Source: a virus. Taken from it: a stretch of DNA of 64,000 bases. Shown piece by piece: positions 5,157 through 35,926 of this stretch (position 1 is the stretch's first letter; every line of letters starts with the position of its first letter). The stretch lies in the IMG/VR virus record IMGVR_UViG_3300029305_006397. One strand, 5' to 3'. A program made the position numbers and the translations under genes. Below the pieces are notes generated by a model. That model was not told the DNA's origin. It saw nothing but the letters and a program-made list of their open reading frames with translations, and ran no database searches.

Positions 5157-5167
5157 TATTCGACTTG

Positions 5168-5194
5168 GGAGGGGCTTAGCCCCTCCTCTATTTT
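5168..5194 (+). terminator. intrinsic terminator after the tape measure gene
   Basis: GGAGGGGC-TTA-GCCCCTCC hairpin followed by TCTATTTT. Confidence 0.7.
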
Positions 5195-9996: not shown

Positions 9997-10345
9997 AAAA
10001 TTTAAGAATCTGCATGCGCGAAATGTGCAGATCATGCGAAGAAGGAAGCTTCGAGAAGAGAGGTTTAAACTCTTCCCTAAAATCAAATGGCCTAGCACCA
10101 GCAAACTTGTTTTGTGGGGTGTTTTTTTGATTTGTATTGAAATGCTTGCATTTTCGCAATATGCGATGATTGCGCTGGGTGACGCCAGCGCAATGTATGT
10201 GCTGCTTGGTATTCCTGCGGCATTGATACCTACATGCCTTGGATATTTTAGCAAGGCGAAGGCTGAAAACACAATCGGTGGAATTACATATGAAACTGTG
10301 ATTCGGCAAAATAAGACCGATTGCCCCGAAGAAGCCGTAGGATAA
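9956..10345 (+). CDS. two-TM membrane protein, holin candidate
   Basis: Two hydrophobic helices (LVLWGVFLICIEMLAFSQYAMI and MYVLLGIPAALIPTCLGYF) follow a basic N-terminus. The start is ambiguous (GTG 9956, ATG 9965 or ATG 9974). It lies just upstream of the lysin region. Confidence 0.5.
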   Translation: MNLMRYMTKEEYIEKFKNLHARNVQIMRRRKLREERFKLFPKIKWPSTSKLVLWGVFLICIEMLAFSQYAMIALGDASAMYVLLGIPAALIPTCLGYFSKAKAENTIGGITYETVIRQNKTDCPEEAVG

Positions 10346-10359
10346 CGGAGGGATAAAAT

Positions 10360-10767
10360 ATGGTGATTTTGAATGGCATTAAGAATTTTTTGCAGTTTGT
10401 AAACGATAACTGGACAATGATTGCGGCGATTGTTTTGCTTACATTGGCCCTGGCGAAAAAGATTATGAATTTCATGGGCAAGAGCAATGAAGAAAAGATT
10501 GCGATTGTAAAGAAGCAGATTCGTGAGTCCATGCTGAAATTTGTAACTGAAGCTGAAATTGATTATCAGGAATGGATGAGCGCTGGCAAGATTAAGCGCA
10601 GCCAGGTAATCAATTTGATTTACGAAAAGTATCCTGTGCTTTCAACAGTTGCGGATCAGGATGAACTGATTGCCTGGTTGGATGCAATGATTGATGAATC
10701 GCTTGCGATGATGCGCGAAATCTTCGAACAGAATGCAAAGGATACTGCGATAACGGAAGACGCATAA
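10360..10767 (+). CDS. holin, LL-H-family-like
   Basis: Single N-terminal TM (WTMIAAIVLLTLALA) followed by a helical tail (..GKIKRSQVINLIYEKY..LIAWLDAMIDESL) that resembles LL-H type holins. GGAGGG SD. Confidence 0.55.
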   Translation: MVILNGIKNFLQFVNDNWTMIAAIVLLTLALAKKIMNFMGKSNEEKIAIVKKQIRESMLKFVTEAEIDYQEWMSAGKIKRSQVINLIYEKYPVLSTVADQDELIAWLDAMIDESLAMMREIFEQNAKDTAITEDA

Positions 10768-10784
10768 ACCATAAACGAGTATAT

Positions 10785-10815
10785 GGGGAGGGCAAACTTT
10801 CCTCCCCTATTTCTT
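10785..10815 (+). terminator. intrinsic terminator
   Basis: GGGGAGGG / CCTCCCC stem followed by TATTTCTT. Confidence 0.7.
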
Positions 10816-10893
10816 ACAAGGTGTAGTTTAAAAAAGTGAATTTATTAATGAGGAAGAATTGCAATAGTGAAACGAGGGTTTCAGGCAGTTTCT

Positions 10894-10930
10894 AAAGGCA
10901 TCATATCATGTATGGATGCCTTTTAATTTA
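10894..10930 (+). terminator. second hairpin, terminator-like
   Basis: AAAGGCATC ..12 nt.. GATGCCTTT followed by T and AATTTATAT. It sits in an intergenic gap with no ORF. Confidence 0.45.
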
Positions 10931-10956
10931 TATGAAAGGCATGGTGTATATGCGAT

Positions 10957-11622
10957 ATGGGTTACTTTGAGTATTTGGGCTTGCCAGCAAAAGTAGGATT
11001 GGCGTTGGCAGCATTATTTTTAACCTCGCAGGTGGTTGGCGAAATATTAGAATTGAAGGGCAAAGTTGTTCCGGAGTTTTTAAAGCTGAGAAAAATGTAT
11101 AAGCGTAGAAAGTCCGAGAGAGAGGCGCTGGCAAAATTACCAGCTTTGATTGAGACATTTGAGCATGTGCCAGAAACACTAAAGGAAGTTAGATCATTAT
11201 TAAATGAGGTGAACCAGCATTATAGCAGTGATAACATTGCAAAGCGTGATTGTTGGATCAAGGAAGTAAATGAGCATATTAACGAAAGCGAACAGAAACG
11301 CGCCGCACAAGATGCATTAATGCGAGAGTTAGGCGAAAAGCTTGATAGGAATACCGAAATGACGCTTTCGATTTCTATAGAAAATAAGCGTAAGGAAATC
11401 ATTGATTTTGCGGCTTATGTGGCAGAAGAGAAGAATCCTGTAACCAAAGAACAATATACACGAATTTTTAAATGTCACAGAGAATATGAGGAAAGTATTT
11501 CAAGAAATGATCTTACAAACGGAGAAGTAGATATTGCAATTCGGATTATCAAAGAATCTTATGAGAATCATTTGAAGAATCATACTTTTATTGAAGATAT
11601 TCGTGGATACGATGTTCATTAA
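10957..11622 (+). CDS. N-terminally membrane-anchored protein of unknown function (lysis-cassette member by position)
   Basis: TM segment VGLALAALFLTSQVVG followed by a charged helical region. It lies directly upstream of the endolysin. Confidence 0.5.
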   Translation: MGYFEYLGLPAKVGLALAALFLTSQVVGEILELKGKVVPEFLKLRKMYKRRKSEREALAKLPALIETFEHVPETLKEVRSLLNEVNQHYSSDNIAKRDCWIKEVNEHINESEQKRAAQDALMRELGEKLDRNTEMTLSISIENKRKEIIDFAAYVAEEKNPVTKEQYTRIFKCHREYEESISRNDLTNGEVDIAIRIIKESYENHLKNHTFIEDIRGYDVH

Positions 11623-11664
11623 CGCTGGATTTCTTTTACAATTACATGGAAAGGAAGATATACG

Positions 11665-12660
11665 ATGGCAGTTAAAATTGGGAATGCATCAATTAGTGAA
11701 AATGGGTCGATTTCAGGCAAAGCTGGCGATCAGACTGGAAGAGAGGTCTATATTAAAAATTGGAAAACTCGTTCTGGAGGTTGGGTAACTCTTCGTTGTA
11801 AAAATGTAGCAATGAGAGAATACATCGCTGAAGCCATGGAAAAGGCATGTAAAAATGACGATATCGGATACGACCAGTACGATAATGATTCTCTTTGGGA
11901 TAACGTAAAAGACAAAGGATTTGATCCAAGTAAGACAACTAAAAAAGTTGAAACCGATTGCGCACGACTTGTTCGTGTATGTGTTCAGTATGCAGCTGTT
12001 AAAGTAGGATTGGACATTACTATTCCTGACTTTTATACTGCAACGCTTGTTTCAAAACTTATGTCTACTGGTTTGTTTGAGAAGATGAGTGCAAGCAAAT
12101 ATGGTTCTTCTAGCGCTCTGTTGGAGCGCGGAATGATCCAATGCTCGAACGGGAAAGGTCATACTTGGATTATTCTTTCAAATGGAGATAAGGTTGGCTC
12201 TACGACTGCGGCTCCCGGAAATGCATTGGAGTTTGGAGACAGGACTCTTGAAAAGGGAGACAAAGGCGATGACGTAAAAGAACTTCAGCAATATTTGATG
12301 AAGCTGGGCTATAAGTTGCCTAAGTACGGCGATGACGGAGATTTCGGCAGCGAAACATTGACAGCCGTTAAGCAGTTTCAAAAGGACAAGGGACTGGAAG
12401 TAGACGGTATTGTTGGTAAAAATACCACCGCTGCCCTGAAAGAATTGATTGGAACAAAGACGAAAAAGGTTGTTGTAACAGGCGGAAGGGTAAATGTGCG
12501 AAAAGGATATAACACAGATTATGATATTTTGTTTACCGCCAGTAAGAACGACGAATTTGTTTGGATTTCTACATCTACCCAAAATGGATGGCATGAGATC
12601 AAAACGAATAAGGGCGACGGTTGGATCAGCAATAAATATTCAAAAGTAATTGAAAAATAA
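11665..12660 (+). CDS. endolysin: Cys/His peptidoglycan hydrolase domain + PG_binding_1 + SH3-like domain
   Basis: Peptidoglycan-binding repeat (GDKGDDVKELQQYLMKLGY..DGDFGSETLTAVKQFQKDKGLEVDGIVG). SH3-like C-terminus (GRVNVRKGYN..NGWHEIKTNKGDGWIS). The N-terminal domain has candidate catalytic Cys (ETDCARLV) and His (KGHTWII). Confidence 0.85.
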   Translation: MAVKIGNASISENGSISGKAGDQTGREVYIKNWKTRSGGWVTLRCKNVAMREYIAEAMEKACKNDDIGYDQYDNDSLWDNVKDKGFDPSKTTKKVETDCARLVRVCVQYAAVKVGLDITIPDFYTATLVSKLMSTGLFEKMSASKYGSSSALLERGMIQCSNGKGHTWIILSNGDKVGSTTAAPGNALEFGDRTLEKGDKGDDVKELQQYLMKLGYKLPKYGDDGDFGSETLTAVKQFQKDKGLEVDGIVGKNTTAALKELIGTKTKKVVVTGGRVNVRKGYNTDYDILFTASKNDEFVWISTSTQNGWHEIKTNKGDGWISNKYSKVIEK

Positions 12661-12699
12661 TATTTAGATGCAAGATATAAAGAAAGGAGGATGAATGAC

Positions 12700-14016
12700 A
12701 TGGACTTAGCGATAATCAAACATATTAAAGTTGATTTTCACGATTCAAGATATATATCTGTTAATGCCAAACAATTTGACGAAGGTTCTCGTTATATTTT
12801 AGTTTCATGTTATAACCAAGGCAAATTTCATCGTTTGGATCAAATGTACAACATGGCGTTCATTAGGTATCGCAAACCAGATTTGAAAAATGTATTTAAC
12901 ATGTGTCAGATTAATGAGAATGGTGAAATCCTTGTTGAGCTCACGATGCAGATGCTGTCTGAACCAGGTGGATGTTACGCAGATTTAGTAATCGTTCGCA
13001 ACGAGCCCATTTCTCCTTCAAGCATTACGTTTAATAGCGGAGAATTGTTATCCAACGAAAATACACAAATTTTGTCTACTATGCTGATTTGTGTCAATTG
13101 TATTCAAAACGCTGTTGATAATAGTGAAATTGAATCTTCGGACGAATACAATGCCTTGAATGAATTGTTGATTAAGGCGACAACGGATTATTCTTATGTT
13201 ATGACTGCGTGCAAGATATCGGCTGAAAATGCATTAGCCTCTGAAGATGCAGCTGCTTTATCGGAAAATAAGGCCGCTATTTCAGAGCAAAACGCATATG
13301 ATTCAGAGGTAAAAGCCAAAGAATCTGAAATGAACGCTGATACTTCAGAGACAAATGCTCTGACTTATTCAAATAACGCCAAGATATCGGAGGAACATGC
13401 ATTGGCGTCCGAAACGCATGCCGCAGAATTTCAAGAAGCTGCGGAGACAAGTGCCAAAGAAGCAGATAATTCTGCTTCAATATCTATTGAAAATGCAAAA
13501 ATTGCGACGGATAAAGCCCTTGAAAGTAATGATAATGCCTTAATGGCAAAATCATATGCTGTCGGAAACGCAGGAATTAGAGTGGACGAGGACAACGACA
13601 ATGCCAGATATTATTTCCATCAAGCCAAGGCAATTAAAGAAGGCTTGGACGGGGCTTTTCTGGCTATGGGCACAATTGAATTTTCTCAATTGGATAGCGT
13701 TACATGTGAAACCGGATATGTATATCATATTGTAGATGCATTCGTTACGGATGAAAGATTTAAGCAAGGCGCAGGACTTTCCTTTGGTGGTGGCACAAAC
13801 GTTTATTATACGGCGGATGGCTATTGGGATTGCTTTGTCGGTGAATCTACAGTAGTTGTTGATGATGGCATTGGCCTGATTGTTACTGACGATGGAGAAG
13901 GAAATGTGACTATTACCGGATATTCTGACTATTTATCAAGCAGCAGAATTATTGAGGAACTTAAAGCAAGGATAGAAACTTTAGAAAATCAGCTTGCATC
14001 TGATGCAAGCAATTAA
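12700..14016 (+). CDS. baseplate upper protein (BppU_N-like) / fibre protein
   Basis: The N-terminal domain resembles BppU_N (VNAKQFDEGSRYILVSCYNQG..ENGEILVELTMQMLSEPGGCYADLVIV). It is followed by an A/E/S-rich coiled segment with repeated (S/T)E.NA units. ATG 12700 has better SD spacing than ATG 12691. Confidence 0.65.
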   Translation: MDLAIIKHIKVDFHDSRYISVNAKQFDEGSRYILVSCYNQGKFHRLDQMYNMAFIRYRKPDLKNVFNMCQINENGEILVELTMQMLSEPGGCYADLVIVRNEPISPSSITFNSGELLSNENTQILSTMLICVNCIQNAVDNSEIESSDEYNALNELLIKATTDYSYVMTACKISAENALASEDAAALSENKAAISEQNAYDSEVKAKESEMNADTSETNALTYSNNAKISEEHALASETHAAEFQEAAETSAKEADNSASISIENAKIATDKALESNDNALMAKSYAVGNAGIRVDEDNDNARYYFHQAKAIKEGLDGAFLAMGTIEFSQLDSVTCETGYVYHIVDAFVTDERFKQGAGLSFGGGTNVYYTADGYWDCFVGESTVVVDDGIGLIVTDDGEGNVTITGYSDYLSSSRIIEELKARIETLENQLASDASN

Positions 14017-24990: not shown

Positions 24991-25458
24991 ATGGCAGATG
25001 TAGTAACGACAAAAACGATTCTGTCAGTTTGTGCCACGGTCGCAAGTAAACTGCCTAATCTTGCATTGCAGGACGGCAGATTAATTTTCGTTAAAGATAA
25101 ACACAGACTTGCCCTTGATTTAGACGGTAAGAGAACATTCTATAATCAAATCGAAGAGCTGGCTACAGAGTCAGATCGCAAAGCGATTTTGGCTCCTGTA
25201 GCTGGCTTATATTATTTTGTTATAGATACGGCTGTATTATGGACTTATCAAAATGGGTGGATTCAAGTAACAACGCAGCCGCATGAAATTGTGTTTATTG
25301 GCGCAAGCATGCCAGAATTAGGTTCGAGCAAAACGCTTTATGTAAACAAAGTTGAAAAAAATATTTCTGTGTGGGACGAAGCATCTGGCAAATATGTACA
25401 GGTTGCGAATAACACAGAAAGAGCAAGCGAAGCAGATATTGATCTGCTTTTCATATAA
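24991..25458 (+). CDS. hypothetical fibre-block protein
   Basis: 155 aa with GGAGGT SD. The C-terminal ..ASEADIDLLFI motif is shared with neighbouring fibre genes. Confidence 0.5.
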   Translation: MADVVTTKTILSVCATVASKLPNLALQDGRLIFVKDKHRLALDLDGKRTFYNQIEELATESDRKAILAPVAGLYYFVIDTAVLWTYQNGWIQVTTQPHEIVFIGASMPELGSSKTLYVNKVEKNISVWDEASGKYVQVANNTERASEADIDLLFI

Positions 25459-25487: not shown

Positions 25488-26948
25488 ATGGCACAGACTA
25501 AATATGTTGATTATATTGGCCTTAAATATTATGATGAGAAACTGAAGGCATGGGTCGAAGACGCTGATGAGGCTATTTTGAAGAGCGCAAAAGATTATGC
25601 TGATGGTTTAGCAGACAATTATGATGCTTCCGGTACTGCTCAGACTAAGGTTGATGCACTTGCTAATGGTCAGGTAAAAGCAAATACCGAAGCCATTACA
25701 AAGCTGAATGGTGCAGAAACTGCTGCTGGCTCTGTTGCAAAGGCTGTTAAGGACGCAAAGGATGCACTGACTGTCGATATTGAAGCAGCTGCCGCTGCTG
25801 CTGAAGCTGCCCAGGAAGCTGCTGATGCTGCTCAGGGTGATGTAGATGCATTGGCTGAAGATGTCGGCAATGTCGAAAACCTTGATACCAGCAATCAGAC
25901 TGTTGTTGGCGCTATTAATGAAGTGCTTGCTGCAGTTGGCACTGGCGGCACTGCTGCTGTGGTGACTATTACATCTGATACCACAACCTCTGGCGCGCTA
26001 AAGTCTTACACCATTAAGCAGGGCAATGTAACCGTTGGCGTAATTGATATTCCCAAGGATATGGTTGTAGAATCTGGTGAAGTTGTCACCAATCCTGCTG
26101 GTCAGGCTGCAGGCACTTATATTAAGCTAGTGCTTGCGAATGTTGCCGATCCTCTGTACATTAATGTTGGCACTCTTGTAGATATTTACAAGGCGAAGGC
26201 AAATGCTTCACAGGTTCAGATTGCAATTGATTCTTCGACTCGCGAAATCAGCGCATCTATTGTTGCTGGTTCCGTGAACACCACTGAACTTGCTGACGAT
26301 GCAGTAGTTACTGTGAAGATTGCAGATGCTAACGTCACCAAGGCTAAGCTTGCCACCAGTGTTCAGGCGTCTCTTGACAAGGCAGATGCAGCAGCTACCA
26401 AGGCCGAATTTGACACTGAAGTTACTCGTGCAAAGGCTGCTGAAGCACAGGCTCTGACTGACGCCAAGAGTTATGCTGACACTGAAATTGGTAAGGAAAA
26501 GACTCGTGCAGAAGGCATCGAAGGTGGACTTGATTCTCGTATCCAGGCGCTTGAAGACAAATTTGGCGATGGCACTGGCACTGTTGAGGCTCAGATCGAA
26601 GCAGCCCAGGAAGCAGCAGAAAAGCATGCTGACGATCTTAATACTGCCATGGATACCCGTGTTAAGGCCGTTGAAGGCGCAAAGCATACTCATACTAACC
26701 TGGCTCTGCTCGAAACCTATACTCAGACTGAAGCAAATCTCGCTGATGCAGTGGCCAAGAAGCACAACCATACCAATAGTGCCGTATTAAATGGCATTAC
26801 TGCAGGTAAAGTAACGGATTGGGATAATGCTGCTGCGGCAATTGCCGATGGTGGTTCTCTGGAAGTGCGCATCGATGCACTTGAAGGTAAGGTAGGCGAT
26901 GGCTTTGTTGCCATTACCAATGCCGAAATCGACACTATGTTCGCTTAA
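25488..26948 (+). CDS. Ala-rich coiled-coil fibre protein
   Basis: 486 aa. N-terminal YVDYIGLKYYDEKLKAWV anchor-like motif, long A/E/K/T coiled regions, and a C-terminal ..ITNAEIDTMFA. Confidence 0.6.
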   Translation: MAQTKYVDYIGLKYYDEKLKAWVEDADEAILKSAKDYADGLADNYDASGTAQTKVDALANGQVKANTEAITKLNGAETAAGSVAKAVKDAKDALTVDIEAAAAAAEAAQEAADAAQGDVDALAEDVGNVENLDTSNQTVVGAINEVLAAVGTGGTAAVVTITSDTTTSGALKSYTIKQGNVTVGVIDIPKDMVVESGEVVTNPAGQAAGTYIKLVLANVADPLYINVGTLVDIYKAKANASQVQIAIDSSTREISASIVAGSVNTTELADDAVVTVKIADANVTKAKLATSVQASLDKADAAATKAEFDTEVTRAKAAEAQALTDAKSYADTEIGKEKTRAEGIEGGLDSRIQALEDKFGDGTGTVEAQIEAAQEAAEKHADDLNTAMDTRVKAVEGAKHTHTNLALLETYTQTEANLADAVAKKHNHTNSAVLNGITAGKVTDWDNAAAAIADGGSLEVRIDALEGKVGDGFVAITNAEIDTMFA

Positions 26949-26967: not shown

Positions 26968-27000
26968 GAGGCGCAGCACATTCTGCGCCTCTTTTATTTT
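26968..27000 (+). terminator. intrinsic terminator
   Basis: GAGGCGCAG-cacatt-CTGCGCCTC followed by TTTTATTTT. Confidence 0.8.
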
Positions 27001-27018: not shown

Positions 27019-27450
27019 ATGGCTGAGAAAACAATGAAAACGCTTACATTCAATGATTTAAAATATGAAATTGTTGATTCAGAAGCAAGAATAAAAATAG
27101 AAGAAATGCAAGAAGATCGGAGCAAGTTAATCGACGCTACTTTATCTCAATCTGAAAAGGCAGCTGATGCAAAAGTAGTAGGTGATACTCTTGCTGAAAA
27201 AGTACCTGTTACTCGAACAATTAATGGAAAAAAATTAAATGAAGACATTGAACTTTCCGCATCTGATATAGGTGCGTTATCAAGTGATGATATAGATAAA
27301 ACATTACTTATTGAGGGTTCTCCGGCAGATGCGAAAGTTACCGGAGAAAAAATAAGTGATATAGAAACTGAGCTTTCAGAAATTACGATTGATGAAATCA
27401 ACGAAATTGTAGGAAACACTTTGTATTCAGGAGATATGGAGGTGTTATAA
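27019..27450 (+). CDS. fibre adaptor-like protein (paralog of 29953-30306)
   Basis: 143 aa with AGAGGTG SD. Two ADAK(V)xG motifs. The C-terminus IDEINEIVGNTLYSGDMEVL is shared with the 29953-30306 protein. Its stop overlaps the next ATG (TAATG). Confidence 0.55.
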   Translation: MAEKTMKTLTFNDLKYEIVDSEARIKIEEMQEDRSKLIDATLSQSEKAADAKVVGDTLAEKVPVTRTINGKKLNEDIELSASDIGALSSDDIDKTLLIEGSPADAKVTGEKISDIETELSEITIDEINEIVGNTLYSGDMEVL

Positions 27451-28598
27451 TGGCTGTTTTAAAACGGAATGGACTTGAGCACTTATGGATGCAAGTTGTT
27501 CAAAAAATTGAGAACGCTATCTCAAATATTAATTATAAAGATGTCGGCGCAGCTCCGGATCAGCATGAGCATTCTTATTTAGGCATTGAAACAATTAATT
27601 ATAATTTGCCAGAAGGCACATGGAGAGATATTGCTTATGGCAATGGCGTATATGTTGCAATTGGAGATGGGCTTAAAGTAGCATATAGTTATGATTGTGT
27701 CACTTGGAATATTGTTGACGTTTCCGGATTGCTCAACAATCTCGATACGGTATCAACTGCATTATATGTAGTTTGGGGAAATGACAGGTTTGTGATCCAG
27801 ATTTATTATAGTGATCAAATATTATATAGTTCTGATGGTATTGAATGGCATGCTGCTTCCTTACCATCTTTTGAATACTGGCATGGTATAGCTTATGGCA
27901 ATGGAAGATTTGTGGTAGTTTCTCATGGCAGTATGGGAAGTAAAGTAGCTGCTTATAGTGATGACGCCATCACATGGACACCGACAGTATTGTCTACTTC
28001 TGCGCTTTGGAGCCAAATGACATTTGGAAATGGAACATTTGTCGCTGCTGCCACTAATTTGGGATACATTAATTACAGTACAGACAATGGTGTAACATGG
28101 AATGCAAGCAATTTACCTGATGAATGTTATTGTGCTAATATTGCCTTTGGGAATGGCGTATTTGTTGCAATCGATCACTCCTCCGGGAACACAGGTGTTT
28201 ATAGTAATGACGGTAGTAATTGGACAAAGGTTGAATTGCCTGTGTCTGCGAAATGGGAATTTATTTTATATAATGGAAACAAATTTTTAGCCGCGTCATC
28301 TGACGCTCATTTTATTTACAGTAGTGATGGAATAACATGGATTGAAGGCTCGGTTTTAAATTTTGCTTGGAGGAATGGAACAAGCGACAATCATAAAACC
28401 TGGATGATTTCTGAAAACGGAGTAATATCAAACAGTGAGGATGGCGTTGAATGGGCAATCGAAACTCCTTTTTTAATGCAAGATCATGAAGATTCATCGC
28501 AAACTTTGAAAGCTATTATTGGTAATCCATATCAATATGGAACAACTCTCCCCGAAACGGCTTCCGAAGGAGAATTGTTTTTTTTGTTAAATAGCTAG
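27450..28598 (+). CDS. receptor-binding protein candidate, BNR/Asp-box beta-propeller (about 7 blades)
   Basis: Repeated W..(I/M)(A/T)(Y/F)GNG.FV(A/V) strands alternate with S.DG..W Asp-box-like motifs (YSSDGIEW, YSDDAITW, YSTDNGVTW, YSNDGSNW, YSSDGITW, NSEDGVEW). Confidence 0.6.
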   Translation: MAVLKRNGLEHLWMQVVQKIENAISNINYKDVGAAPDQHEHSYLGIETINYNLPEGTWRDIAYGNGVYVAIGDGLKVAYSYDCVTWNIVDVSGLLNNLDTVSTALYVVWGNDRFVIQIYYSDQILYSSDGIEWHAASLPSFEYWHGIAYGNGRFVVVSHGSMGSKVAAYSDDAITWTPTVLSTSALWSQMTFGNGTFVAAATNLGYINYSTDNGVTWNASNLPDECYCANIAFGNGVFVAIDHSSGNTGVYSNDGSNWTKVELPVSAKWEFILYNGNKFLAASSDAHFIYSSDGITWIEGSVLNFAWRNGTSDNHKTWMISENGVISNSEDGVEWAIETPFLMQDHEDSSQTLKAIIGNPYQYGTTLPETASEGELFFLLNS

Positions 28599-28613
28599 TT
28601 GGGTGGTGTTTTT

Positions 28614-29201
28614 ATGACAGGCAACTTAGAGGTTACAAGTAGCGGAGGCTCAAATCATCAGGGCCTTGATAGTGTAAACAGCTATGGTTATTTAATGAGT
28701 GGAGGTACAGGAGGAAAGCTGTATTTCACAATAGGCGCAAACTCTATTAATGAAGGTAAGCCAGCAGAGATTATCGGCATTAAAACGAAGACTTCATGTC
28801 CATATGGGGCACAAGCTGATACATTTAGCTGGTATTTTGTTAACACTGAAAAACAAACAGCTACTTTAAGTCAAAACATTGTCCGCACTTTAACATGGGG
28901 GCAAAAGACAATTGATTATTTTAATAGCTTCAGAGATGAAAGAAAGTGTTTTTCAAAAGCAAAAAGCGGAATTGCTTTGCATATTGCAGACACTTCTTAT
29001 AGTTCTTCCAGTCAAGATACTGATGGAAATATTAGAATTGCGCGCACTGGATCAGTATTGACAATTACCTGGAAAGCATTGAATCAAGCGAAAATATTTG
29101 TTAATGGACAATGGATAAATGCAGAACCTCATATTTACACTCAATCTATGTGGATACCTGTTGATTTTTATATTTGTCACAATAACGAATGGAAAAATTA
29201 G
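28614..29201 (+). CDS. RBP-associated protein (paralog of 33927-34511)
   Basis: The start is set at ATG 28614 (MTGNLEV..) by alignment with the paralog's MTGRVSV. Shared motifs are INEGKPA.I.GI, I(D/E)YFNS.RD and a terminal EWKN. Confidence 0.55.
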   Translation: MTGNLEVTSSGGSNHQGLDSVNSYGYLMSGGTGGKLYFTIGANSINEGKPAEIIGIKTKTSCPYGAQADTFSWYFVNTEKQTATLSQNIVRTLTWGQKTIDYFNSFRDERKCFSKAKSGIALHIADTSYSSSSQDTDGNIRIARTGSVLTITWKALNQAKIFVNGQWINAEPHIYTQSMWIPVDFYICHNNEWKN

Positions 29202-29224
29202 AATTTTGAGGGAGATGGGTAAAA

Positions 29225-29395
29225 TTGAAATATATAAATTGGGATGGCCTTAAATACTTTCTCGATAAAATTTTAGAGACGGTTATGGGCTTACTTTCAG
29301 ATAAAGTAAGTACGACTGATTTAGTAGAAACAACGGATGCCGAAATTGATGAGATTTGCGGAGCTGAAGTTGTTGCTGATGGGGTGAGTTATTAA
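29225..29395 (+). CDS. mini fibre adaptor (56 aa, TTG start; absent from the ORF track)
   Basis: The frame is open from 29210. TTG 29225 lies 10 nt after GAGGGAG. It carries both the N-terminal (WDGLKYFLDKI) and C-terminal (TDAEIDEICG) family motifs. Its stop overlaps the next ATG (TAATG). Confidence 0.45.
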   Translation: MKYINWDGLKYFLDKILETVMGLLSDKVSTTDLVETTDAEIDEICGAEVVADGVSY

Positions 29396-29937
29396 TGGCA
29401 AATGTTATTATTGACGATACTAGCTTAGTGAATATTGCAGATGCAATTAGAGAAAAAAGCGGAAGTACAGATGTGTTTTTGCCTGGTGAAATGGCTAATG
29501 CCATTCTAAATCTTGCTACAAATGCGGGATGGGATGTAGTGACAAAATCCGGATTTAAACCAACTGTAAATGGAACGGCAGAAATAGTAAATCATAATTT
29601 AGGTAGAAAGCCACGTTTTATTATATGGAAAACAAATACAAGAACAAGTCCTTCAACTAGCACTAATTATTCTTCATATTATGAAAGTCTATTTAGCGTA
29701 TCTATATACAATGAAACGACCGATACATATACAACAACTGGTTGGGCAGTTCAACATAGTAGGTTTTCTTATTATTCCACTGCATCGGCAACAACGCCCT
29801 CTTATATGGATAAATTATATTTAACATCCTCAACTGGCGGAACATCGGTTAATGTAAATAGTATAACGGAAAATACATTTACGACACCATCATATATAAG
29901 GACAAATGCTGGTTATACATATTGGGTAATTGGATGA
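29395..29937 (+). CDS. small receptor-binding head candidate
   Basis: 180 aa. The N-terminal motif VNIADAIREKSGSTD is shared with the 30306-30731 protein (VAVADAVRVKTGESK). S/T/Y-rich beta-type remainder. Confidence 0.55.
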   Translation: MANVIIDDTSLVNIADAIREKSGSTDVFLPGEMANAILNLATNAGWDVVTKSGFKPTVNGTAEIVNHNLGRKPRFIIWKTNTRTSPSTSTNYSSYYESLFSVSIYNETTDTYTTTGWAVQHSRFSYYSTASATTPSYMDKLYLTSSTGGTSVNVNSITENTFTTPSYIRTNAGYTYWVIG

Positions 29938-29952
29938 AGGAGGTAATTATAA

Positions 29953-30306
29953 ATGAAAATTGTTACTCGATCTGGGATAGAACGTTTATGGTCTCATATC
30001 AGTATTAGACTCAATAACAAAGTAGATAAGATCAACGGAAAAGGCTTGTCTTCAAATGATTACACAAATGAAGAAAAAACAAAACTCGGCAACATCGAAA
30101 ATGGGGCTACCAATACAACAATTGATGCGAGCTTGGTTACAGCTGGAGCAGCTGCAGACGCCAAAGCGACAGGAGAAAAAATTGCAGAGGAAGTTGATGC
30201 AATGGCGGAAGAAATTCGTACAACTGATCTGGCAGACATAAGCAATGAGCAAATCGATGCTATGTTTGGCGAGACTTTGTATTCTGGCGAGGAGGAGGTA
30301 TTGTAA
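29953..30306 (+). CDS. fibre adaptor-like protein (paralog of 27019-27450)
   Basis: Motifs SGIERLWSHI, GKGLSSNDYTNEEKTKLGNIE and AADAKATGEKI. C-terminus EQIDAMFGETLYSGEEEVL. Its stop overlaps the next ATG (TAATG). Confidence 0.55.
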   Translation: MKIVTRSGIERLWSHISIRLNNKVDKINGKGLSSNDYTNEEKTKLGNIENGATNTTIDASLVTAGAAADAKATGEKIAEEVDAMAEEIRTTDLADISNEQIDAMFGETLYSGEEEVL

Positions 30307-30731
30307 TGAGTGACAAGCTTATATGTAATTATGAAGATATGGTTGCGGTAGCAGATGCAGTTCGCGTTAAAACTGGCGAATCAAAAAAATATTCTGTTCC
30401 GCAATTACGAGAATACCTGGTAAAAGAAATAACAACTCCCACAATATCTCTGCCTAAGCTTGAAAATCCCGCAAGCGAGGCGGAGATTTTTTATGGATAT
30501 GAAACAATAGACGCCGCTGGCAATAAAAAAACTGGTAATTTTACCATTGATAATGAACTTATCGATCAGAACTCACTTCTTACGAGCATCGTAGAAACTT
30601 TAAGAATGAGAGTGCTCGAAGCAGCTGGCATGATTGTTACAGATTACGACGAAGAGACGGCAACATTGTCTCTTTCATTATCTAACGCTACAGTTACAAC
30701 TCAGGGCGATACAGTGGTTATTACCGGATAA
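30306..30731 (+). CDS. small receptor-binding head candidate
   Basis: 141 aa. The N-terminal ADA(V/I)R.K(T/S)G motif is shared with the 29395-29937 protein. Confidence 0.55.
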   Translation: MSDKLICNYEDMVAVADAVRVKTGESKKYSVPQLREYLVKEITTPTISLPKLENPASEAEIFYGYETIDAAGNKKTGNFTIDNELIDQNSLLTSIVETLRMRVLEAAGMIVTDYDEETATLSLSLSNATVTTQGDTVVITG

Positions 30732-30746
30732 GGAAGGTGAACTAGA

Positions 30747-32168
30747 ATGAAAATGAGCAATTTATCGATAAACCAAAATGCATTTGATTTCATTGATGAT
30801 GAAGCTGTGCATTTTACAGAACAAGATTTAACCAAGGAACAGAAGGCACAAGTTAGAAAAAATATAGATGCTATTTCGATGACTTATTCTCCACCCGCAA
30901 ATTTACCTTCCGGAAACTGGGATGGGTTTACCTATGGAAATGGCATGTATATTGCAGTAGGTTATAAAGTAAGCGGAGGTGTAACGGGGTGCGCTGCATA
31001 TAGTTATAATGGTTCTGAATGGTATGAAGCTGTGCTTGATCGAGTTATGTCATCAGGCGGACTTAACTCTGTTGTTTATGCAAACGGTAAGTTCGTTGCG
31101 GTTGGAACAATGGGACATGGAGCATACAGTATTGATGGAGAGAATTGGACAGTCACAGAAACGGGAGAAGTAGAAGATCATTGGGAAAAAATCGCCTATG
31201 GAAATGGAAAATATGTGGCAGTTAATTCAGAAGGCTACATGATATGTAGTAACGATGGTATTACATGGGATGAAAAAATTCAGCCTTTTGAAAACACTAT
31301 TTGGAGAGATATAACTTTTGGAAATGGCGTATTTGTGGCTGTACGTTATAGTAGCGGTTCTAGTCCCACTGTATATAGTGTTGATGGAATTAATTGGGAT
31401 TTATGTAATACAAATTTTTCAGCTCTTTATGTTACATATACAGGCGATAGATTTATTGCATCTAGTTTTGGAGATATTTATTATAGTACGGACGGAATAA
31501 ATTGGACGCAAGGTGGTAGTGTTGGAGTTGACGTTGATCCTCAAATTGTTTATTTCAACGGGAAATATGTTGCCGTAGGTGTTAGTCAAATGAGAGGAGA
31601 TGGATTCTCATATATTAGCGATGATCTTAACACATGGACGGAAACAAATATTGATGACAGTATTGGATGGTATCATTTATTATCTACTGAAAACAGTTTA
31701 ATTGCAATTTCAGAAGATAGTAAATTGCTTTTTAGTAGCAATGGCATTGATTGGAGTATTGCCAATGTCGTATTTACCAAAGGTAATGAAAATATTACAG
31801 AAGACATGAAGAGTGCTATGGGCATTTGTTATAACACTGTGGAACTAAAAACTGGAGATTTTTGGATTGATGGTAAACCTATTTATAGAAAAACAATTGA
31901 ACTTCCGGAAATTGCAGCAAATAGAACTTCAACGGATGTATTGATAACCGTGAGCACAGATTGTGAAACAATTATTCGCGCAGAAGGAATGGTAAACAAC
32001 GGTAGCGGTGTATACTATCCGATAAATTTTGCCAATTTATCCTCATCTGGTTATAAGGTTTCTATGTGGTTTAAATCTGGTGGAATTGCTATTCAAACAG
32101 GAACTTCGATAGAAATTGCAGGCGGATTTGTTACTGTTTATTATACTAAAACAGTTACTTCCGCATAA
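30747..32168 (+). CDS. receptor-binding protein candidate: BNR/Asp-box beta-propeller + C-terminal 'WIDGKPIYRK' domain
   Basis: Seven YGNG(K/M/V)(Y/F)(V/I)AV-type blades with S.DG..W motifs (YSIDGENW, CSNDGITW, YSVDGINW, YSTDGINW, SSNGIDW). A C-terminal domain starting TGDFWIDGKPIYRKTI follows. Confidence 0.6.
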   Translation: MKMSNLSINQNAFDFIDDEAVHFTEQDLTKEQKAQVRKNIDAISMTYSPPANLPSGNWDGFTYGNGMYIAVGYKVSGGVTGCAAYSYNGSEWYEAVLDRVMSSGGLNSVVYANGKFVAVGTMGHGAYSIDGENWTVTETGEVEDHWEKIAYGNGKYVAVNSEGYMICSNDGITWDEKIQPFENTIWRDITFGNGVFVAVRYSSGSSPTVYSVDGINWDLCNTNFSALYVTYTGDRFIASSFGDIYYSTDGINWTQGGSVGVDVDPQIVYFNGKYVAVGVSQMRGDGFSYISDDLNTWTETNIDDSIGWYHLLSTENSLIAISEDSKLLFSSNGIDWSIANVVFTKGNENITEDMKSAMGICYNTVELKTGDFWIDGKPIYRKTIELPEIAANRTSTDVLITVSTDCETIIRAEGMVNNGSGVYYPINFANLSSSGYKVSMWFKSGGIAIQTGTSIEIAGGFVTVYYTKTVTSA

Positions 32169-32183
32169 TAGGGAGGGATATCA

Positions 32184-32618
32184 ATGTCTTATAATACAGA
32201 CTTACAAGAAAACAACGCTACTTTACAATCAATATTAGAAGTAGCACAGGCTCTTCCTACTCATGGAGTAAATTATAGTACGGAAGAGACTCTTACTGGC
32301 GGAACATGGATTGATGGGAAGCCAATTTATAGGAAAGTAATTCCTTTTGGACAAATAAACAACGGTACAATAATGTCTAAACCAATGAATACAGGCCCTC
32401 TTTCCTCTCTTGTACATCTATGGGGATATGGTAGACGCGATACAGATTTGCGTCCCTTACCGGTAGTAGCTACGGATATGCCTCAAACGGCAGGTATTGC
32501 TATTTCGTATTTTGATACCGATCCACAAGTCTACGTCTCAGCAGGCACAAATGGTGGCCTTCATGAGTCCTGGTTCATAGTGGAATACACCAAAGCAGCC
32601 GATGTAGCTACCACTTGA
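32184..32618 (+). CDS. stand-alone 'WIDGKPIYRK' domain protein
   Basis: 144 aa. TGGTWIDGKPIYRKVI parallels the C-terminal domain of the preceding gene. GGGAGGG SD. Confidence 0.5.
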   Translation: MSYNTDLQENNATLQSILEVAQALPTHGVNYSTEETLTGGTWIDGKPIYRKVIPFGQINNGTIMSKPMNTGPLSSLVHLWGYGRRDTDLRPLPVVATDMPQTAGIAISYFDTDPQVYVSAGTNGGLHESWFIVEYTKAADVATT

Positions 32619-32640
32619 TATAAAGAAGGGAGCGAATGAT

Positions 32641-33897
32641 ATGGCGGTTTTAAAAGAGACAGGACTGCAGCATTTATGCAATCATATTAATTCTCAAATT
32701 ACTATATTAGAAGGTAATATGACGTGTTGTCCGCGTAAAGCAACTGGAAATCCTATTATATTTGAAAATGGTATAGAAAACTTTAGAGTGAGTGCTAAAA
32801 TTATAAATGAATTTGAGAGACCAACCAGTAATGGCGGAGAGGAAACTATTATTGAAAATTGGCCCACACCAGATTCTCCTGCGGATATTCCAGTAAAGAA
32901 AACAAACTATTTCATATATTCTGGCATTAATAACAATATGTTTAATAAAGATGCTCTGAATTATGGTGTAAATGAGTCTGGAACGGCTGTTGCGTCTATG
33001 GCAATTAGCAATAAAATTTATATTCCTACTCAGGGAGAATTATTTATCAATTTATTCAATGTTCCCGATACGGTTAGTATATCTTGCATAGTATGCGACC
33101 GGGCATCTGATGGTATATATAGCTATGGCAGTGTTGATATTATGGAATCTGGATCACCGTATGTGAGCTATGGAGATTGGGGACTTGGCGGCGTAGTTGA
33201 TAGCATTATAATTTCAATTTCAAAGCTGGATGAAAGCGAGCTTACGTCAAGCGATCTAGCTGAATTGCGTGTAGGCGTTTATGCTACTTATGATCCGGAA
33301 GAGCTTACTTTTGAGGCAGGAAAAGGCAATTTCATCAGCATTGATGTGGATAGTGCCTGGGATGCTAGTGCAGGATACTTTGGCATTGTAGACTTAAATC
33401 AGGGGATTATCGAGATGAATTATGGCGTGGTAATGCTCTCTGATTTGGTCGCTGAAACTGTGACTTGGACTAAAAACACAACAGCAACTCCAACAGGCGA
33501 TTCAATTTCATATTGGTCTACATCAGATATACAGATTGATGATTATGATAGCGACTTGTTTTGTACACACTATTCTACCAATAGTATCGGCAGCTATGGA
33601 TTGGATTATGATGGAGATACACTGTCAATTTATAATGCAACTGATTTTGCTACTGAGGATGAATTTAAAGCATTTGTAGGTAGTTTAAGCGGTATGATTA
33701 TTTATAAAAGAACCGAGCCTCTGATTTATCAAATTTCTACTCCCAATATTTATTGTTATGAAGGTTCTAATTATTTATATGCCGATGGTAATATAATTGA
33801 ATCAATATACAACATTCCCGACACGGCATATAAATTTGGCACTTCTTTACCTGCTAACGGTAAAAAGGGCGATGTATTTTTCCTTTTGACTGCTTAA
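32641..33897 (+). CDS. receptor-binding protein candidate (shares both termini with 27450-28598, unrelated core)
   Basis: N-terminus MAVLKETGLQHL and C-terminus FGTSLPANGKKGDVFFLLTA match MAVLKRNGLEHL and YGTTLPETASEGELFFLLNS of the 27450-28598 protein. Confidence 0.55.
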   Translation: MAVLKETGLQHLCNHINSQITILEGNMTCCPRKATGNPIIFENGIENFRVSAKIINEFERPTSNGGEETIIENWPTPDSPADIPVKKTNYFIYSGINNNMFNKDALNYGVNESGTAVASMAISNKIYIPTQGELFINLFNVPDTVSISCIVCDRASDGIYSYGSVDIMESGSPYVSYGDWGLGGVVDSIIISISKLDESELTSSDLAELRVGVYATYDPEELTFEAGKGNFISIDVDSAWDASAGYFGIVDLNQGIIEMNYGVVMLSDLVAETVTWTKNTTATPTGDSISYWSTSDIQIDDYDSDLFCTHYSTNSIGSYGLDYDGDTLSIYNATDFATEDEFKAFVGSLSGMIIYKRTEPLIYQISTPNIYCYEGSNYLYADGNIIESIYNIPDTAYKFGTSLPANGKKGDVFFLLTA

Positions 33898-33926
33898 ATC
33901 TATTATGTTGAAAGGAGATCGTTACA

Positions 33927-34511
33927 ATGACAGGAAGGGTAAGCGTATCTGGTTATAGAGGCCAGAATTGCAACGGCGTTGGATCTGGAGGAACGGCTAC
34001 TTCATATTATAGCCAGAGTGCTTCTTACACAATAAGCACAGGAACAAAAGGCATCGTCCAATTCAGAGTTCCATTTGGAGACATTAACGAAGGTAAACCA
34101 GCTAGAATTACGGGGATAAGTGTACAATTAAAAGCCAACTCTGGCTCTGACGCATTTAATGTTATTCTTAATGGAGAATCCCAAACAGTAAGTATTTCTA
34201 CGACGCCTACAGTCGTTATATTTGAAAACGAAACAATTGAATATTTTAATAGTAGGCGCGATTCCAACAATTGTTTTCCTAGTTCAACTTCTTACATTAC
34301 ATTGCGTTTTTTAGATAGAACGGTAAGTGGAGGTTCTTGCAAAATTTCGCCAATTAATCAAAAATTATTTATTCAATGGGAATCTTTAGACCCAATTCGT
34401 GTTTTTGATGGTACGGAGTGGAAAGCGGCAGATGCGTATGTCTATACTGGCGAGACTTGGGCTAAGGCAGCATGTTATATTAATGACGGCAGTGAATGGA
34501 AAAATAGTTAA
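33927..34511 (+). CDS. RBP-associated protein (paralog of 28614-29201)
   Basis: Shared motifs INEGKPARITGI, IEYFNSRRD..NCF and a terminal SEWKNS. AAAGGAG SD. Confidence 0.55.
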   Translation: MTGRVSVSGYRGQNCNGVGSGGTATSYYSQSASYTISTGTKGIVQFRVPFGDINEGKPARITGISVQLKANSGSDAFNVILNGESQTVSISTTPTVVIFENETIEYFNSRRDSNNCFPSSTSYITLRFLDRTVSGGSCKISPINQKLFIQWESLDPIRVFDGTEWKAADAYVYTGETWAKAACYINDGSEWKNS

Positions 34512-34673
34512 TGTACAGTCGGCATGAAGACGATAAACTCATGCAATTGGGTGATCAGCAGCCCTATAAATGCGAGTCGGCCATGACGGCGAGAATATCA
34601 TGGACGTGTAGTAGATGCTCGGAAGGGCATTGCGGCTGTTTGCCTAGCATAAAAGGCATCCACATACGATAAT

Positions 34674-34704
34674 GGGGAGAGCGATTGGCTCTCCCCTATT
34701 TTTT
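34674..34704 (+). terminator. intrinsic terminator closing the plus-strand arm
   Basis: GGGGAGAGC-gattg-GCTCTCCCC followed by TATTTTTT. Confidence 0.8.
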
Positions 34705-34718: not shown

Positions 34719-35687
34719 TTATTGTGTTCTGGAAACACGATGAACTCTACTATTCTTTTTCTTAATTACATCAAGAGGACTAAAGTCTTCGTAATTTTCT
34801 TTCAGATCTTCAGAGAACATTTTTACATATCTTCTAGTCATTTCAAGAGTGCGATGATCAAGTAGTTTTTGAAGCTTGAAAACGTCTCCTTTATTGCGGA
34901 GCCAATGTTTTGCGAAGGTGTGACGGAACATGTGAATTGATGTTTTGCCTACCTCGCGATATTCATTATATCTACGAATTGATATTTTGAGCGCATTGAC
35001 AGTCAGTTTTTCGTCGCCAACATTTGGGAAGAGATAGTCTTCTGGATCAGACATGCCGCGCCAAAGATCAATATAGTCCGCTAAGGCATTCTTTAAGGAA
35101 ATCGACATTGGCAGTATCATTGCATTTTTAGCTTTAGTGAATCTAATTGTGATTTCTTTATTGGCTAAATCTGCGTCTTTTATTCTGACGTTGCAAATAG
35201 TCGAAGCACGATTTCCTGTTGCAAGAATCCAATTTACAATTGCCCATGATCTCCATTCTGTAAATGAATCTTGCTTAGAAGGACGTTTCAGCAGAGCAAG
35301 CAGTTCCTGATCGTTATATGTTTCTATTATACTTTCTTGTTCTCCGACCAATTTTATTGCAAATTCGCTAAGGTACTTATGCTCCATGCACCAATACAGA
35401 AATGCCCTAACGTGGCGCAGATAGTGATTTACGGAAGCTGGGGAAAGGTCTTCGTCTAACAGTCGTTTTGAAAACTTGAGTATATATTCTTCTGTTACAT
35501 CTTTGATATTAGTCCGTAGACCCTCTTCGTCTAAAAAACTGTTCCACCTCTTGAAGCTGTCGTTGGCTGAACGTATCGTATCTTTAGAAGCATTTGATGC
35601 GATTTTCTCAGCGATGTACTTGTAATATGCTTGTTCAATTGTCAAACTAACTTCGTTCGTTCTGACCATTTTTCTTTGAGTTGCCAT
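34719..35687 (-). CDS. int: tyrosine recombinase / phage integrase
   Basis: Catalytic signature: R in ATGNRAS, HxxR in HMFRHTF, and H..Y in LLDHRTLEMTRRYV. ATG 35687 lies 7 nt after GGAG. The longer track ORF (to 35759) has no SD. Confidence 0.9.
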   Translation of the reverse strand: MATQRKMVRTNEVSLTIEQAYYKYIAEKIASNASKDTIRSANDSFKRWNSFLDEEGLRTNIKDVTEEYILKFSKRLLDEDLSPASVNHYLRHVRAFLYWCMEHKYLSEFAIKLVGEQESIIETYNDQELLALLKRPSKQDSFTEWRSWAIVNWILATGNRASTICNVRIKDADLANKEITIRFTKAKNAMILPMSISLKNALADYIDLWRGMSDPEDYLFPNVGDEKLTVNALKISIRRYNEYREVGKTSIHMFRHTFAKHWLRNKGDVFKLQKLLDHRTLEMTRRYVKMFSEDLKENYEDFSPLDVIKKKNSRVHRVSRTQ

Positions 35688-35726
35688 ATGGGTTCTCCTT
35701 TCATAATGGTGATTAAAAGGTGAAAC

Positions 35727-35770
35727 CCTGATTTGATTTTGGGTGTCTGAAACTGACATCCTGATTTAAT
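35727..35770 (+). repeat. two direct copies of CCTGATTT(G/A)AT (35727-35737 and 35760-35770) between int and the tRNA
   Basis: Read directly from the sequence. The same core CCTGATT is the plus-strand reading of the tRNA anticodon arm (35884-35900). Confidence 0.8.
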
Positions 35771-35850
35771 TGGTTTCTTGGAGTCCTTTGAACGAATTAC
35801 AGATAAACAAAAAAGGCCAAAAGCCTTGAAATCAAAGACTTTTGACCATT

Positions 35851-35926
35851 TGGTACACCTTCAGGGGCTCGAACCCTGGACACCCTGATTAAGAGTCAGG
35901 TGCTCTACCAACTGAGCTAAAGGTGC
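35851..35926 (-). tRNA. tRNA-Lys: tRNA-Lys (anticodon CUU), 76 nt with encoded CCA
   Basis: The minus-strand sequence GCACCTT-TA-GCTC-AGTTGGTA-GAGC-A-CCTGA-CTCTTAA-TCAGG-GTGTC-CAGGG-TTCGAGC-CCCTG-AAGGTGT-ACCA folds as a cloverleaf. The anticodon CTT is at plus coordinates 35891-35893. Confidence 0.9.

Follow-up and report, generated by a model that had tools for sequence, protein, structure and literature searches.

Are neighbouring genes at the end of a phage tail module made as separate parts of one fibre, a stalk and a head that dock on each other? The question is raised by a 64,000-nucleotide stretch of viral DNA (IMG/VR record IMGVR_UViG_3300029305_006397; "the window" is used for this whole stretch), in which three small genes carry related C-terminal peptides and run, each through a one-base stop/start overlap of the form TAATG, into the gene downstream. 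The 17 co-oriented genes that close the + strand tail module are named g01-g17, and g07-g17, eleven genes all on the + strand, make up the interval 27019-34511. A sequence-only reading of the window had described this interval as a tandem array of receptor-binding cassettes on a common anchor. Our preferred reading, to which we give a probability of about 0.6, is that the array encodes two-piece fibres, each a stalk with a docked head, and that the translation of the two pieces is coupled.

Three small genes with related ends

The coordinates, the peptides and the three TAATG overlaps given in the sequence-only reading were all found correct on recheck. The overlaps lie on the + strand at 27448..27452 (g07/g08, with GGAGGT 7 nt upstream), at 29393..29397 (g10/g11, where the TAA overlaps the next ATG by one base) and at 30304..30308 (g12/g13, with GGAGGAGGT upstream). 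The claim that the last codons of two of the three small genes spell a GGAGG Shine-Dalgarno sequence also held, for g07 (ATGGAGGTG) and g12 (GAGGAGGAGGTA); g10 carries GGGGTGAG instead. The pentamer is about as common in the window as expected (119 copies against 116). Within the 36-gene + strand module, -1 overlaps were found only at these three places and between g17 and a 53-aa open reading frame (ORF) at 34511. TAATG is remarkable here by its placement and not by its frequency. The g07/g08 junction differs from the other two, as g08 has no module of the type that heads g11 and g13 (described below).

Of the three upstream genes, g07 (27019..27450, +) encodes a putative stalk or adaptor of 143 aa with the N-terminus 'KTLTFNDLKYEIVDSEAR', two D.TL..G.AADAK.VG repeats and the C-terminus EINEIVGNTLYSGDMEVL; it matches the interior of the tail-fibre family phrog_23008 (1.6e-11). 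The putative stalk or adaptor g12 (29953..30306, +; 117 aa) has an anchor helix (MKIVTRSGIERLW), one AADAK repeat and the C-terminus EQIDAMFGETLYSGEEEVL, and likewise matches the interior of tail-fibre PHROGs. The smallest, g10 (29225..29395, +; 56 aa, TTG start), appears to be a minimal adaptor which consists only of the anchor helix (MKYINWDGLKYFLDKIL) and the C-terminal "plug" or joint peptide (TDAEIDEICGAEVVADGVSY), and it is listed at 56 aa in some public gene calls.

For profile comparisons, relatives of the phage were collected with a profile of the conserved 155-aa protein g05, which found 39 IMG/VR loci on contigs of 19-156 kb and one contig of a Waltera intestinalis (Lachnospiraceae) metagenome-assembled genome; one additional relative, L018, came from a protein look-up. 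Single-sequence scans with g05 of viral and genome collections had given no relatives, and the alignment-based search was needed. A hidden Markov model (HMM) of the plug built from relatives only ranked g10 (2.6e-4), g07 (0.009) and g12 (0.17) as the top three of the 386 six-frame ORFs of the window. In direct alignment g07 and g12 matched at E=5e-12, and g10 and g12 end in the common form ...EID.(I/M)(C/F)G....(E/G)V.(L/Y). The three small genes thus do share a related C-terminal peptide, as had been proposed.

The proposed recurrence of an N-terminal motif was also borne out, on g06, g08, g10 and g12 with statistical support and on g16 weakly. The N-terminal HMM from relatives only gave 1.5e-7 for g06 and 1.3e-5 for g10, where the match covers residues 1-17 and backs the TTG start. 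With a second HMM ('GLxxLW'), which had g12 among its seed sequences, the next-best ORFs after g12 were g08 (5e-5) and g16 (E=0.037). This anchor helix, GL..LW or YLD..GL, is present on g06, g08, g10, g12 and g16. Within the array, at least three or four N-terminal classes can be told apart: the GL..LW helix (g08, g10, g12, g16), IADAIR (g11, g13), YEIVD..AR (g07) and DLQ..L.SILE (g15).

C-terminal motifs are seen outside the small genes too. The sequence I(T/S)xx(E/D)ID.(L/M)F ends g05 (24991-25458), g06 (25488-26948) and many unrelated fibres of relatives, and (V/I).(E)F ends are found on several further tail proteins (...EISF on g00, ...VVEF on g04). Such motifs may be a general C-terminal element of the fibres of this phage family.

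A conserved module at the start of the downstream genes

The genes behind two of the junctions begin alike. The putative head g11 (29395..29937, +; 180 aa) has an IADAIR-type module at residues ~1-45, followed by an S/T/Y-rich beta domain, and matches phrog_29123; the putative head g13 (30306..30731, +; 141 aa) has an N-terminal IADAVR module, an internal plug-like sequence (LPKLENPASEAEIFYG) and a small C-terminal domain. Both N-termini (MANVIIDDTSLVNIADAIREKSG... and MSDKLICNYEDMVAVADAVRVKTG...) are members of a ~45-residue module with the core (I/V)A(D/N)A(I/V)R.K(T/S)G ... (M/L)...I, which sits at the extreme N-terminus. The module HMM matched g11 at E=8.1e-18 and g13 at E=7.4e-14, in both cases from residue 1, and did not match g08, g14 or g16.

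An exhaustive profile search gave 22,491 cluster representatives at E<=1e-3 and 4,852 at E<=1e-10. Among the 266 best proteins, the first module copy begins within 5 residues of the N-terminus in 260, and 59 carry at least two copies in tandem. The domains that follow it include LRR_5, DUF4082 and Ig-like (Big_3) domains. No Pfam family covers the module, no significant match in the PDB was obtained by sequence for g06, g07, g11 or the module profile, and in the literature the string 'IADAIR' returned only unrelated text, while keyword searches returned no description of the module. An AlphaFold2 model of a tandem-module relative (37-sequence alignment) reached a mean predicted local distance difference test (pLDDT) score of 77.7 and a predicted template modelling score of 0.64. 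Each module in this model comprises a short strand and then two helices, of 15 and 9 residues, with a loop between them, at pLDDT>90; a Foldseek comparison of the model with the PDB gave no match at E<=0.001.

The same junction in other phages

The module likewise heads genes that follow plug-ending genes in relatives. Of 15 module-headed genes at non-redundant loci, 11 share exactly one base with the gene before them; the other adjacent pairs do so in 11 of 945 cases (Fisher p=6e-17). The upstream partners range from 52 to 1086 aa and have a similar C-terminal peptide. Up to the stop codon, these ends read ...NAEEVSF in L018 (followed by TAATG and a 551-aa LRR_5 protein), ...NAEEASF in L020, ...NANEVSF in L057 and ...ASEVTF in L016; in L048 and L053 the upstream partner is a long fibre, of 1072 aa (...NMNEGAF) and 1086 aa (...QAEGVGF) respectively. 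A second class of junction, kept in L016, L018, L061 and L066, has a 14-nt overlap in which ...ENGSY and its stop codon lie over MALIDKLTAIGDAIREKTG.

Chains of three proteins occur in unrelated phages (L059/L060, L061 and L065). In L059/L060, a 173-aa protein ending in ...PASAEEVEY is followed by a 56-aa protein consisting of the module and ...LPAAEGVEF, and this by a 504-aa module-headed protein, both junctions being TAATG. In L061, a collagen-like protein, a 52-aa connector and a 481-aa protein are encoded between the head-tail connector and tail genes. Proteins of 52-56 aa in the relatives consist of module and joint only. In L066, at 4544-5183, a module and joint junction (14-nt overlap, ...VEDGAY before the stop codon, MVLIDKLTAIGDAIREKTG) lies between head-completion and tail genes, and because of this position the connector is not confined to distal tail fibres.

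Some of the related or module-sharing phages showed a further peculiarity. Structural genes of L016 (for example 10001-10579, 10576-11670 and 11670-13064) and L061 (2058-2465, 2610-4055 and 4385-5506) contain in-frame TAG codons that the public gene calls read through, so these two are probably TAG-recoded phages. Recoding was rejected for the phage of the window, in which TAG is an ordinary stop, the single tRNA is Lys-CTT and the ORF for a 2419-aa protein is uninterrupted.

The joint as ribosome-binding site and as protein element

In nearly all junctions the codons GAG GAG GTN encode E-E-V and at the same time give GGAGGT at the ideal distance from the ATG. Constraint at the level of RNA certainly contributes to the conservation of the peptide. 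The most serious alternative is that it explains most of it: the peptide would then be largely a by-product of the Shine-Dalgarno sequence, and the small proteins and the heads would not bind each other, each docking on the baseplate via its own N-terminal module.

Several observations fit this alternative and weigh against two-piece fibres. The E-E-V codons form a near-perfect Shine-Dalgarno sequence (GAGGAGGT), so that part of the conservation of the peptide could be at the nucleotide level. In the AlphaFold2 model of the tandem-module relative, the linker that bears the joint is a low-confidence coil, as of a disordered segment, and a model of g10 concatenated with g11, made with no alignment, had a pLDDT of 33 and was unusable. 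The joint of g07 and its TAATG precede a gene which starts with the anchor helix and lacks the IADAIR module, and some IADAIR genes in relatives come after joint-less genes or begin 15-21 nt downstream (L024:14462, L065:5223). Finally, what suggests virion location and receptor binding is weak family matches and gene context.

Other properties of the peptide speak for a protein element. Residues outside the Shine-Dalgarno sequence are conserved as well, namely P or A at -6 to -8 and the final aromatic residue or Leu. The motif LP.AE(E/D).SFG is also found inside single-chain relatives (P0132, P0141, P0162, P0172, P0177, P0203, P0207 and P0245), between the module and either a head or a further module; with no start codon behind it, it needs no Shine-Dalgarno sequence there. 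Because of these internal copies, the joint is an inter-domain element at the protein level and not a Shine-Dalgarno sequence alone, and the split genes are cut exactly at the joint. Moreover, g10 and the 52-56-aa module-joint proteins have no obvious role save as connectors. The by-product explanation is therefore considered unlikely, though it deserves to be kept in view. The ends of the stalks (...ITxxDIDxICGG....NEVSF) resemble the second half of the module together with the joint (...LTLDEMPxEIxxIxxGG..LPxAEEVxF), a likeness which suggests that a stalk end may pack on the next module in the way tandem modules would pack on each other.

The natural single-chain versions of module, joint and module, and the tightness and conservation of the overlaps, also recall a single polypeptide made from stalk and head by programmed frameshifting or stop bypass, a possibility that we regard as scarcely credible and reject, since the frame relation is inconsistent between junction classes (the downstream frame is -1 at the 1-nt TAATG and +1 at the 14-nt overlap, and gaps of 15-21 nt occur too), all downstream genes come with an ATG and a Shine-Dalgarno sequence of their own, and no canonical slippery heptamer is present at the junctions of the window.

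A constant core and variable cassettes

The genes g01-g06 are conserved across 40 related loci, an ortholog of g06 being present in essentially all of them, and the sets of fibre-like genes downstream differ in almost every lineage. No homolog of g08, g09, g10 or g14-g17 was found in the 40 loci. The match of g11 and g13 to the relatives is limited to the first ~45-108 residues; for g11 and the heads of relatives, the common part is only the first ~45-70 aa. Cassette-level variation, the absence of which would have spoken against exchangeable cassettes, is thus real in this phage family and is present downstream of g06.

One relative documents an exchange at the junction itself. The closest homolog of g07 is P0003 on contig L064, which is 55% identical and ends in ...HSGDEEVL. 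TAATG follows, and with it a gene unlike g08, which over its first 83 residues has 55% identity to g13 (E=5e-29) and beyond them a different, LRR-like head. At the DNA level, L064 aligns with g07 as far as TAATGGCTG and with g12/g13 thereafter. This mosaic, which joins a g07-like to a g13-like gene exactly at TAATG, indicates that the junction is a breakpoint and a site of recombination, as the sequence-only reading had supposed, and that a second breakpoint lies in the head gene, past the part proposed to dock. A g07-type joint may, on this evidence, natively partner a g13-type module; an insertion of the block g08-g12 between g07 and g13 in the phage of the window, with the C-terminal part of g12 as a diverged copy of that of g07, is speculative.

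An apparent parting of g07 from its 'native' g13-type partner is likewise what would be expected if g07, g10 and g12 were decaying stubs, that is, N-terminal fragments of former full-length fibres left after cassette replacement. That g07 and g12 match only the interiors of long tail-fibre families, and that in some relatives (L048 and L053) a complete fibre exceeding 1000 aa takes the place of the upstream partner, could be explained in the same way. The ORFs are intact, however, each with its own ribosome-binding site and both terminal motifs, and several metagenome contigs of independent origin carry the small genes without any difference. In the distant relatives L020, L024, L057 and L064, too, there are short partners (56-124 aa) with these ends. 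Decay is accordingly held to be quite improbable.

Variation of another kind was seen in L045 (16113-19800) and L046 (16152-19914), where 6-7 paralogous genes for proteins of ~190 aa stand in tandem and share both ends (MALVKSIAGNEICDQ..R at the N-terminus, DDGNGNVTI at the C-terminus). Although these two phages are near-identical, the number and order of the paralogs differ, and one copy is split in L046.

Other genes of the array

Immediately before the array lies g06 (25488..26948, +), a 486-aa fibre protein with PHROG tail-fibre matches and the final gene of the conserved core; its N-terminal anchor motif is 'Y.D..GL..YDEKIK' and its C-terminus ITNAEIDTMFA. Downstream of g07, the gene g08 (27450..28598, +) encodes 382 aa; its anchor helix at the N-terminus (MAVLKRNGLEHLW) is followed by a beta-propeller, whose blades have the Asp-box-like form YS.DG..W, and its C-terminus is GTTLPETASEGELFFLLNS. 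The blade repeat appears in the DNA as direct-repeat family D1, and the protein gave weak matches to DUF6242, BNR and Sortilin and a sub-threshold match to the F510_1955 glycosylhydrolase family. It is followed by g09 (28614..29201, +), a 195-aa beta-rich protein which may be a tip or accessory protein of g08. At 28596-28616, the TAG stop of g08 leads on to the g09 ORF without a change of frame, and read-through would fuse g08 and g09; because the paralogous pair g16/g17 is out of frame, the shared frame is probably due to chance.

Beyond g13 lies g14 (30747..32168, +; 473 aa), a beta-propeller with a DUF6242 match (5e-7) and a C-terminal 'WIDGKPIYRK' domain, a stand-alone copy of which is encoded by g15 (32184..32618, +; 144 aa; direct-repeat family D6). 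The N-terminus of g15 (DLQENNATLQSILEVAQALP, 32184-32270) is a conserved module that is also found on otherwise different genes in L048 (19806-20213) and L020 (15524-16327). The array ends with g16 (32641..33897, +; 418 aa), whose N-terminus (MAVLKETGLQHLC) and C-terminus (GTSLPANGKKGDVFFLLTA) are as in g08, and g17 (33927..34511, +; 194 aa), a paralog of g09.

The sequence-only reading had taken the remaining parts of these genes to be unrelated to each other. This does not apply to the propellers g08 and g14 (1e-32), to g09 and g17 (2e-30) or to the C-terminus of g14 and g15 (1e-7), so that the heads are partly paralogous; g08 and g16 have the C-terminal end GT.LP....G..FFLL in common and differ in the middle. 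The Asp-box-type propellers of g08 and g14 are candidate glycan binders. For g09 and g17 no relative was found beyond the phage itself, either in viral contigs or in a set of 5.8 billion proteins.

The absence of relatives of g09 and g17, which come after g08 and g16 and have no recognisable binding domain, bears on a further alternative, namely that the downstream genes encode assembly chaperones of the upstream fibres (Tfa, T4 gp38 or gp57-like) and not heads of the virion. A fibre gene followed by a chaperone gene is a common order in phages. Against this, the downstream genes of relatives encode large proteins with binding domains (LRR_5, DUF4082 or Ig-like), and the upstream partner can be as small as 52-77 aa and would need no dedicated chaperone. 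No match to Tfa/gp57-type chaperone families was found in Pfam, PHROGs or NCBIfam. We regard chaperones as a very improbable explanation; g09 and g17, having no relatives at all, may be an exception.

A proposed scheme for stalks and docked heads

Given the tail context and the matches of g07 and g12 to interior parts of tail-fibre PHROGs, an assignment of g07-g17 as modular fibre or receptor-binding cassettes that close the tail module is supported. In the scheme that we favour, that of two-piece fibres, the region 27.0-34.7 kb would encode the tail end with which a large phage recognises its host, a variable part built from few portable modules in five cassettes of two to three genes each (g07-g08-g09, g10-g11, g12-g13, g14-g15 and g16-g17). 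In the stalks or adaptors g07, g10 and g12, and in the larger g08 and g16, a short N-terminal helix would fix the protein to the virion. The IADAIR module of g11 and g13, which starts one base before the stop of the upstream gene is complete, would dock the head non-covalently on the C-terminal joint of the stalk. Through the embedded Shine-Dalgarno sequence and the TAATG overlap, translation would be coupled, with stalk and head being made together. With joint and module conserved and the flanking domains not, the junction would also be a place where homologous recombination swaps heads from one phage to another. The sequences establish the anatomy and the paralogy, how conserved and enriched the junction is, how the module is distributed and that one relative is recombinant; the presence of the products in virions, their physical docking, the coupling of translation and the binding of receptors are what we infer. 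The clearest argument for an adaptor role is g10, which has the anchor helix, the joint and nothing else.

Of the earlier proposal of at least five receptor-binding modules on a common anchor, the modular cassettes stand, with their tail-fibre PHROG matches, and the common anchor is too simple a picture. One array contains at least three or four N-terminal module classes, which makes a hierarchical or branched assembly more likely than five heads on one anchor.

Location and boundaries of the array

The first 34.7 kb of the window are, on the + strand, a phage tail module. Upstream of the array it encodes a 1714-aa tape-measure-like protein, tail proteins, an endolysin-like protein and the 2419-aa protein, which has a DUF6273 domain at its C-terminus. 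The endolysin-like protein (331 aa, 11665-12660), in which the C-terminal half is of the endolysin type, may be a virion-associated lysin. The tape-measure gene and the gene order suggest a long, non-contractile (sipho-like) tail.

Two strong intrinsic terminators on the + strand bracket exactly the variable array and set g07-g17 apart from the core g01-g06. One marks the boundary between core and array (26968..26991; a 9-bp stem with 7 GC pairs, then TTTTATTTTA), and the other closes the array (34674..34696; again a 9-bp stem with 7 GC pairs). This flanking suggests that 27.0-34.7 kb is a transcription unit of its own. A Cys-rich ORF of 53 aa (34511-34672; MYSRHEDDKLMQ...CSRCSEGHCGC...), which is absent from public gene calls, overlaps the stop of g17 as TAATG and ends 2 nt before the closing terminator.

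Beyond the array, a tyrosine integrase gene on the - strand (34719-35759) directly adjoins a tRNA-Lys(CTT) gene (35851-35926), and the coding strand and the GC skew switch at this site (34719-35926). Since public contigs reach 146 kb, the longest with these exact proteins, integrase and tRNA may be a phage-borne pair rather than the end of a prophage. Public JGI and ENA contigs from several metagenomes, many of them short or partial, have the identical gene order wherever they cover the locus, the sole difference among those shown being the called start of g10; the layout is therefore no assembly artefact. In the INPHARED phage collection there was no match to near-identical DNA or to the g05 protein.

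Comparison with known systems

In lactococcal P335-type baseplates (TP901-1/Tuc2009 BppU-BppA-BppL), the adaptor BppU carries separately encoded BppL trimers. As in the present proposal, a siphovirus of a Gram-positive host has a separate adaptor protein and trimers of a receptor-binding protein (RBP); each such phage has one adaptor and one RBP type, as against the tandem array here, and no sequence similarity was detected.

Alternative C-terminal specificity cassettes beside a recombinase gene are known from Mu Gin, P1 Cin and the R64 Rci shufflon, and the tyrosine integrase at 34719-35759 is near the array. Unlike in shufflons, all cassettes are co-oriented and have a start codon each, and the recombinase appears to be of the ordinary phage integrase type, beside tRNA-Lys. 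No inverted or direct recombination-site repeats flank the cassettes (22.0-36.5 kb), the best inverted repeat in this region having 39 nt, 72% complementarity and a position away from gene borders, and a shufflon or invertase system was rejected. No ~100-nt repeat pair of a diversity-generating retroelement (Mtd-like) was found in 22.0-36.5 kb; reverse transcriptase was not searched for elsewhere in the window.

A likeness in gene order is seen with the gp37-gp38 pair of T2/T6/S16-type phages. In T2/T6 the small adhesin gp38 binds the fibre tip through an N-terminal attachment domain (PMC3157838). Both are two-gene systems with a small modular protein encoded directly after the fibre gene and open to easy exchange (PMC3157838), and the order g10-g11 and g12-g13 matches that of an adhesin directly downstream of a fibre. 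The array differs by its two or three tandem repeats, by an upstream partner of down to 56 aa and by the conserved -1 overlap. None of g07-g17 matched gp38-type adhesins in Pfam, PHROG or NCBIfam, and the glycine-rich motifs of gp38 were absent.

In podophages of the Klebsiella KP32/K11/KP34 type, RBP1 has a branching domain to which RBP2 attaches through a conserved docking peptide, and the primary protein alone holds the virion anchor (PMC13352976, PMC8262889). In the scheme proposed here, too, a secondary protein would attach by a short conserved N-terminal element, in a plug-and-play manner open to domain swaps. The conserved N-terminal elements of the array are analogous and unrelated to those docking peptides, and no T4gp10-like branching domain was found in the 22-34.5 kb proteins (Pfam, PHROG). 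Unlike those systems, the array belongs to a phage of Gram-positive-type gut hosts with an apparently sipho-like tail and has more cassettes, and its docking is predicted.

Several co-encoded RBPs mounted via conserved N-terminal domains, with tailspikes gained by exchange downstream, are also a feature of the multi-tailspike complexes of Ackermannviridae (CBA120-type) and Alcyoneusvirus (RaK2/phiK64-1) (PMC11414711, PMC10253068). Those phages are myoviruses with large tailspikes and XD/TD docking domains; they have no tiny adaptor genes, and there is no homology to the array.

The sequence-only reading knew of no described system in which a split adaptor/head design is repeated several times in tandem, but the principle has precedent in gp38 of T2/T6 (PMC3157838) and in the KP32-type phages of Klebsiella (PMC13352976). 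The design principle is known; the modules, the tiny connectors, the standard -1 overlap, the tandem repetition and the breadth of the family differ from known systems.

Significance

Tentatively, and with the odds somewhat against it, the proposal may be extended beyond this phage. The joint and the IADAIR module would then be a portable, self-assembling connector found in more than 20,000 phage protein clusters, the -1 overlap its standard socket into which homologous recombination would insert cassettes, and the whole a general host-range system of uncultured gut Firmicutes phages. If so, LRR_5, DUF4082, propeller and Ig-like heads would be chained onto fibres, necks or collars, and the pure connectors of 52-56 aa would permit daisy-chaining. 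With no Pfam family and no solved structure at present, the module offers structural biology a concrete target. A genuine connector would also offer a compact docking pair for the engineering of multi-head phages or tailocins, comparable to recent work with the branching domain and docking peptide of Klebsiella phages. The host range of the abundant and mostly uncultured Firmicutes phages of gut and rumen is at present largely unreadable from sequence; if the connector is genuine, it would explain how heads are reshuffled in these phages and, in tens of thousands of proteins without annotation, would show the point at which the receptor-binding head starts.

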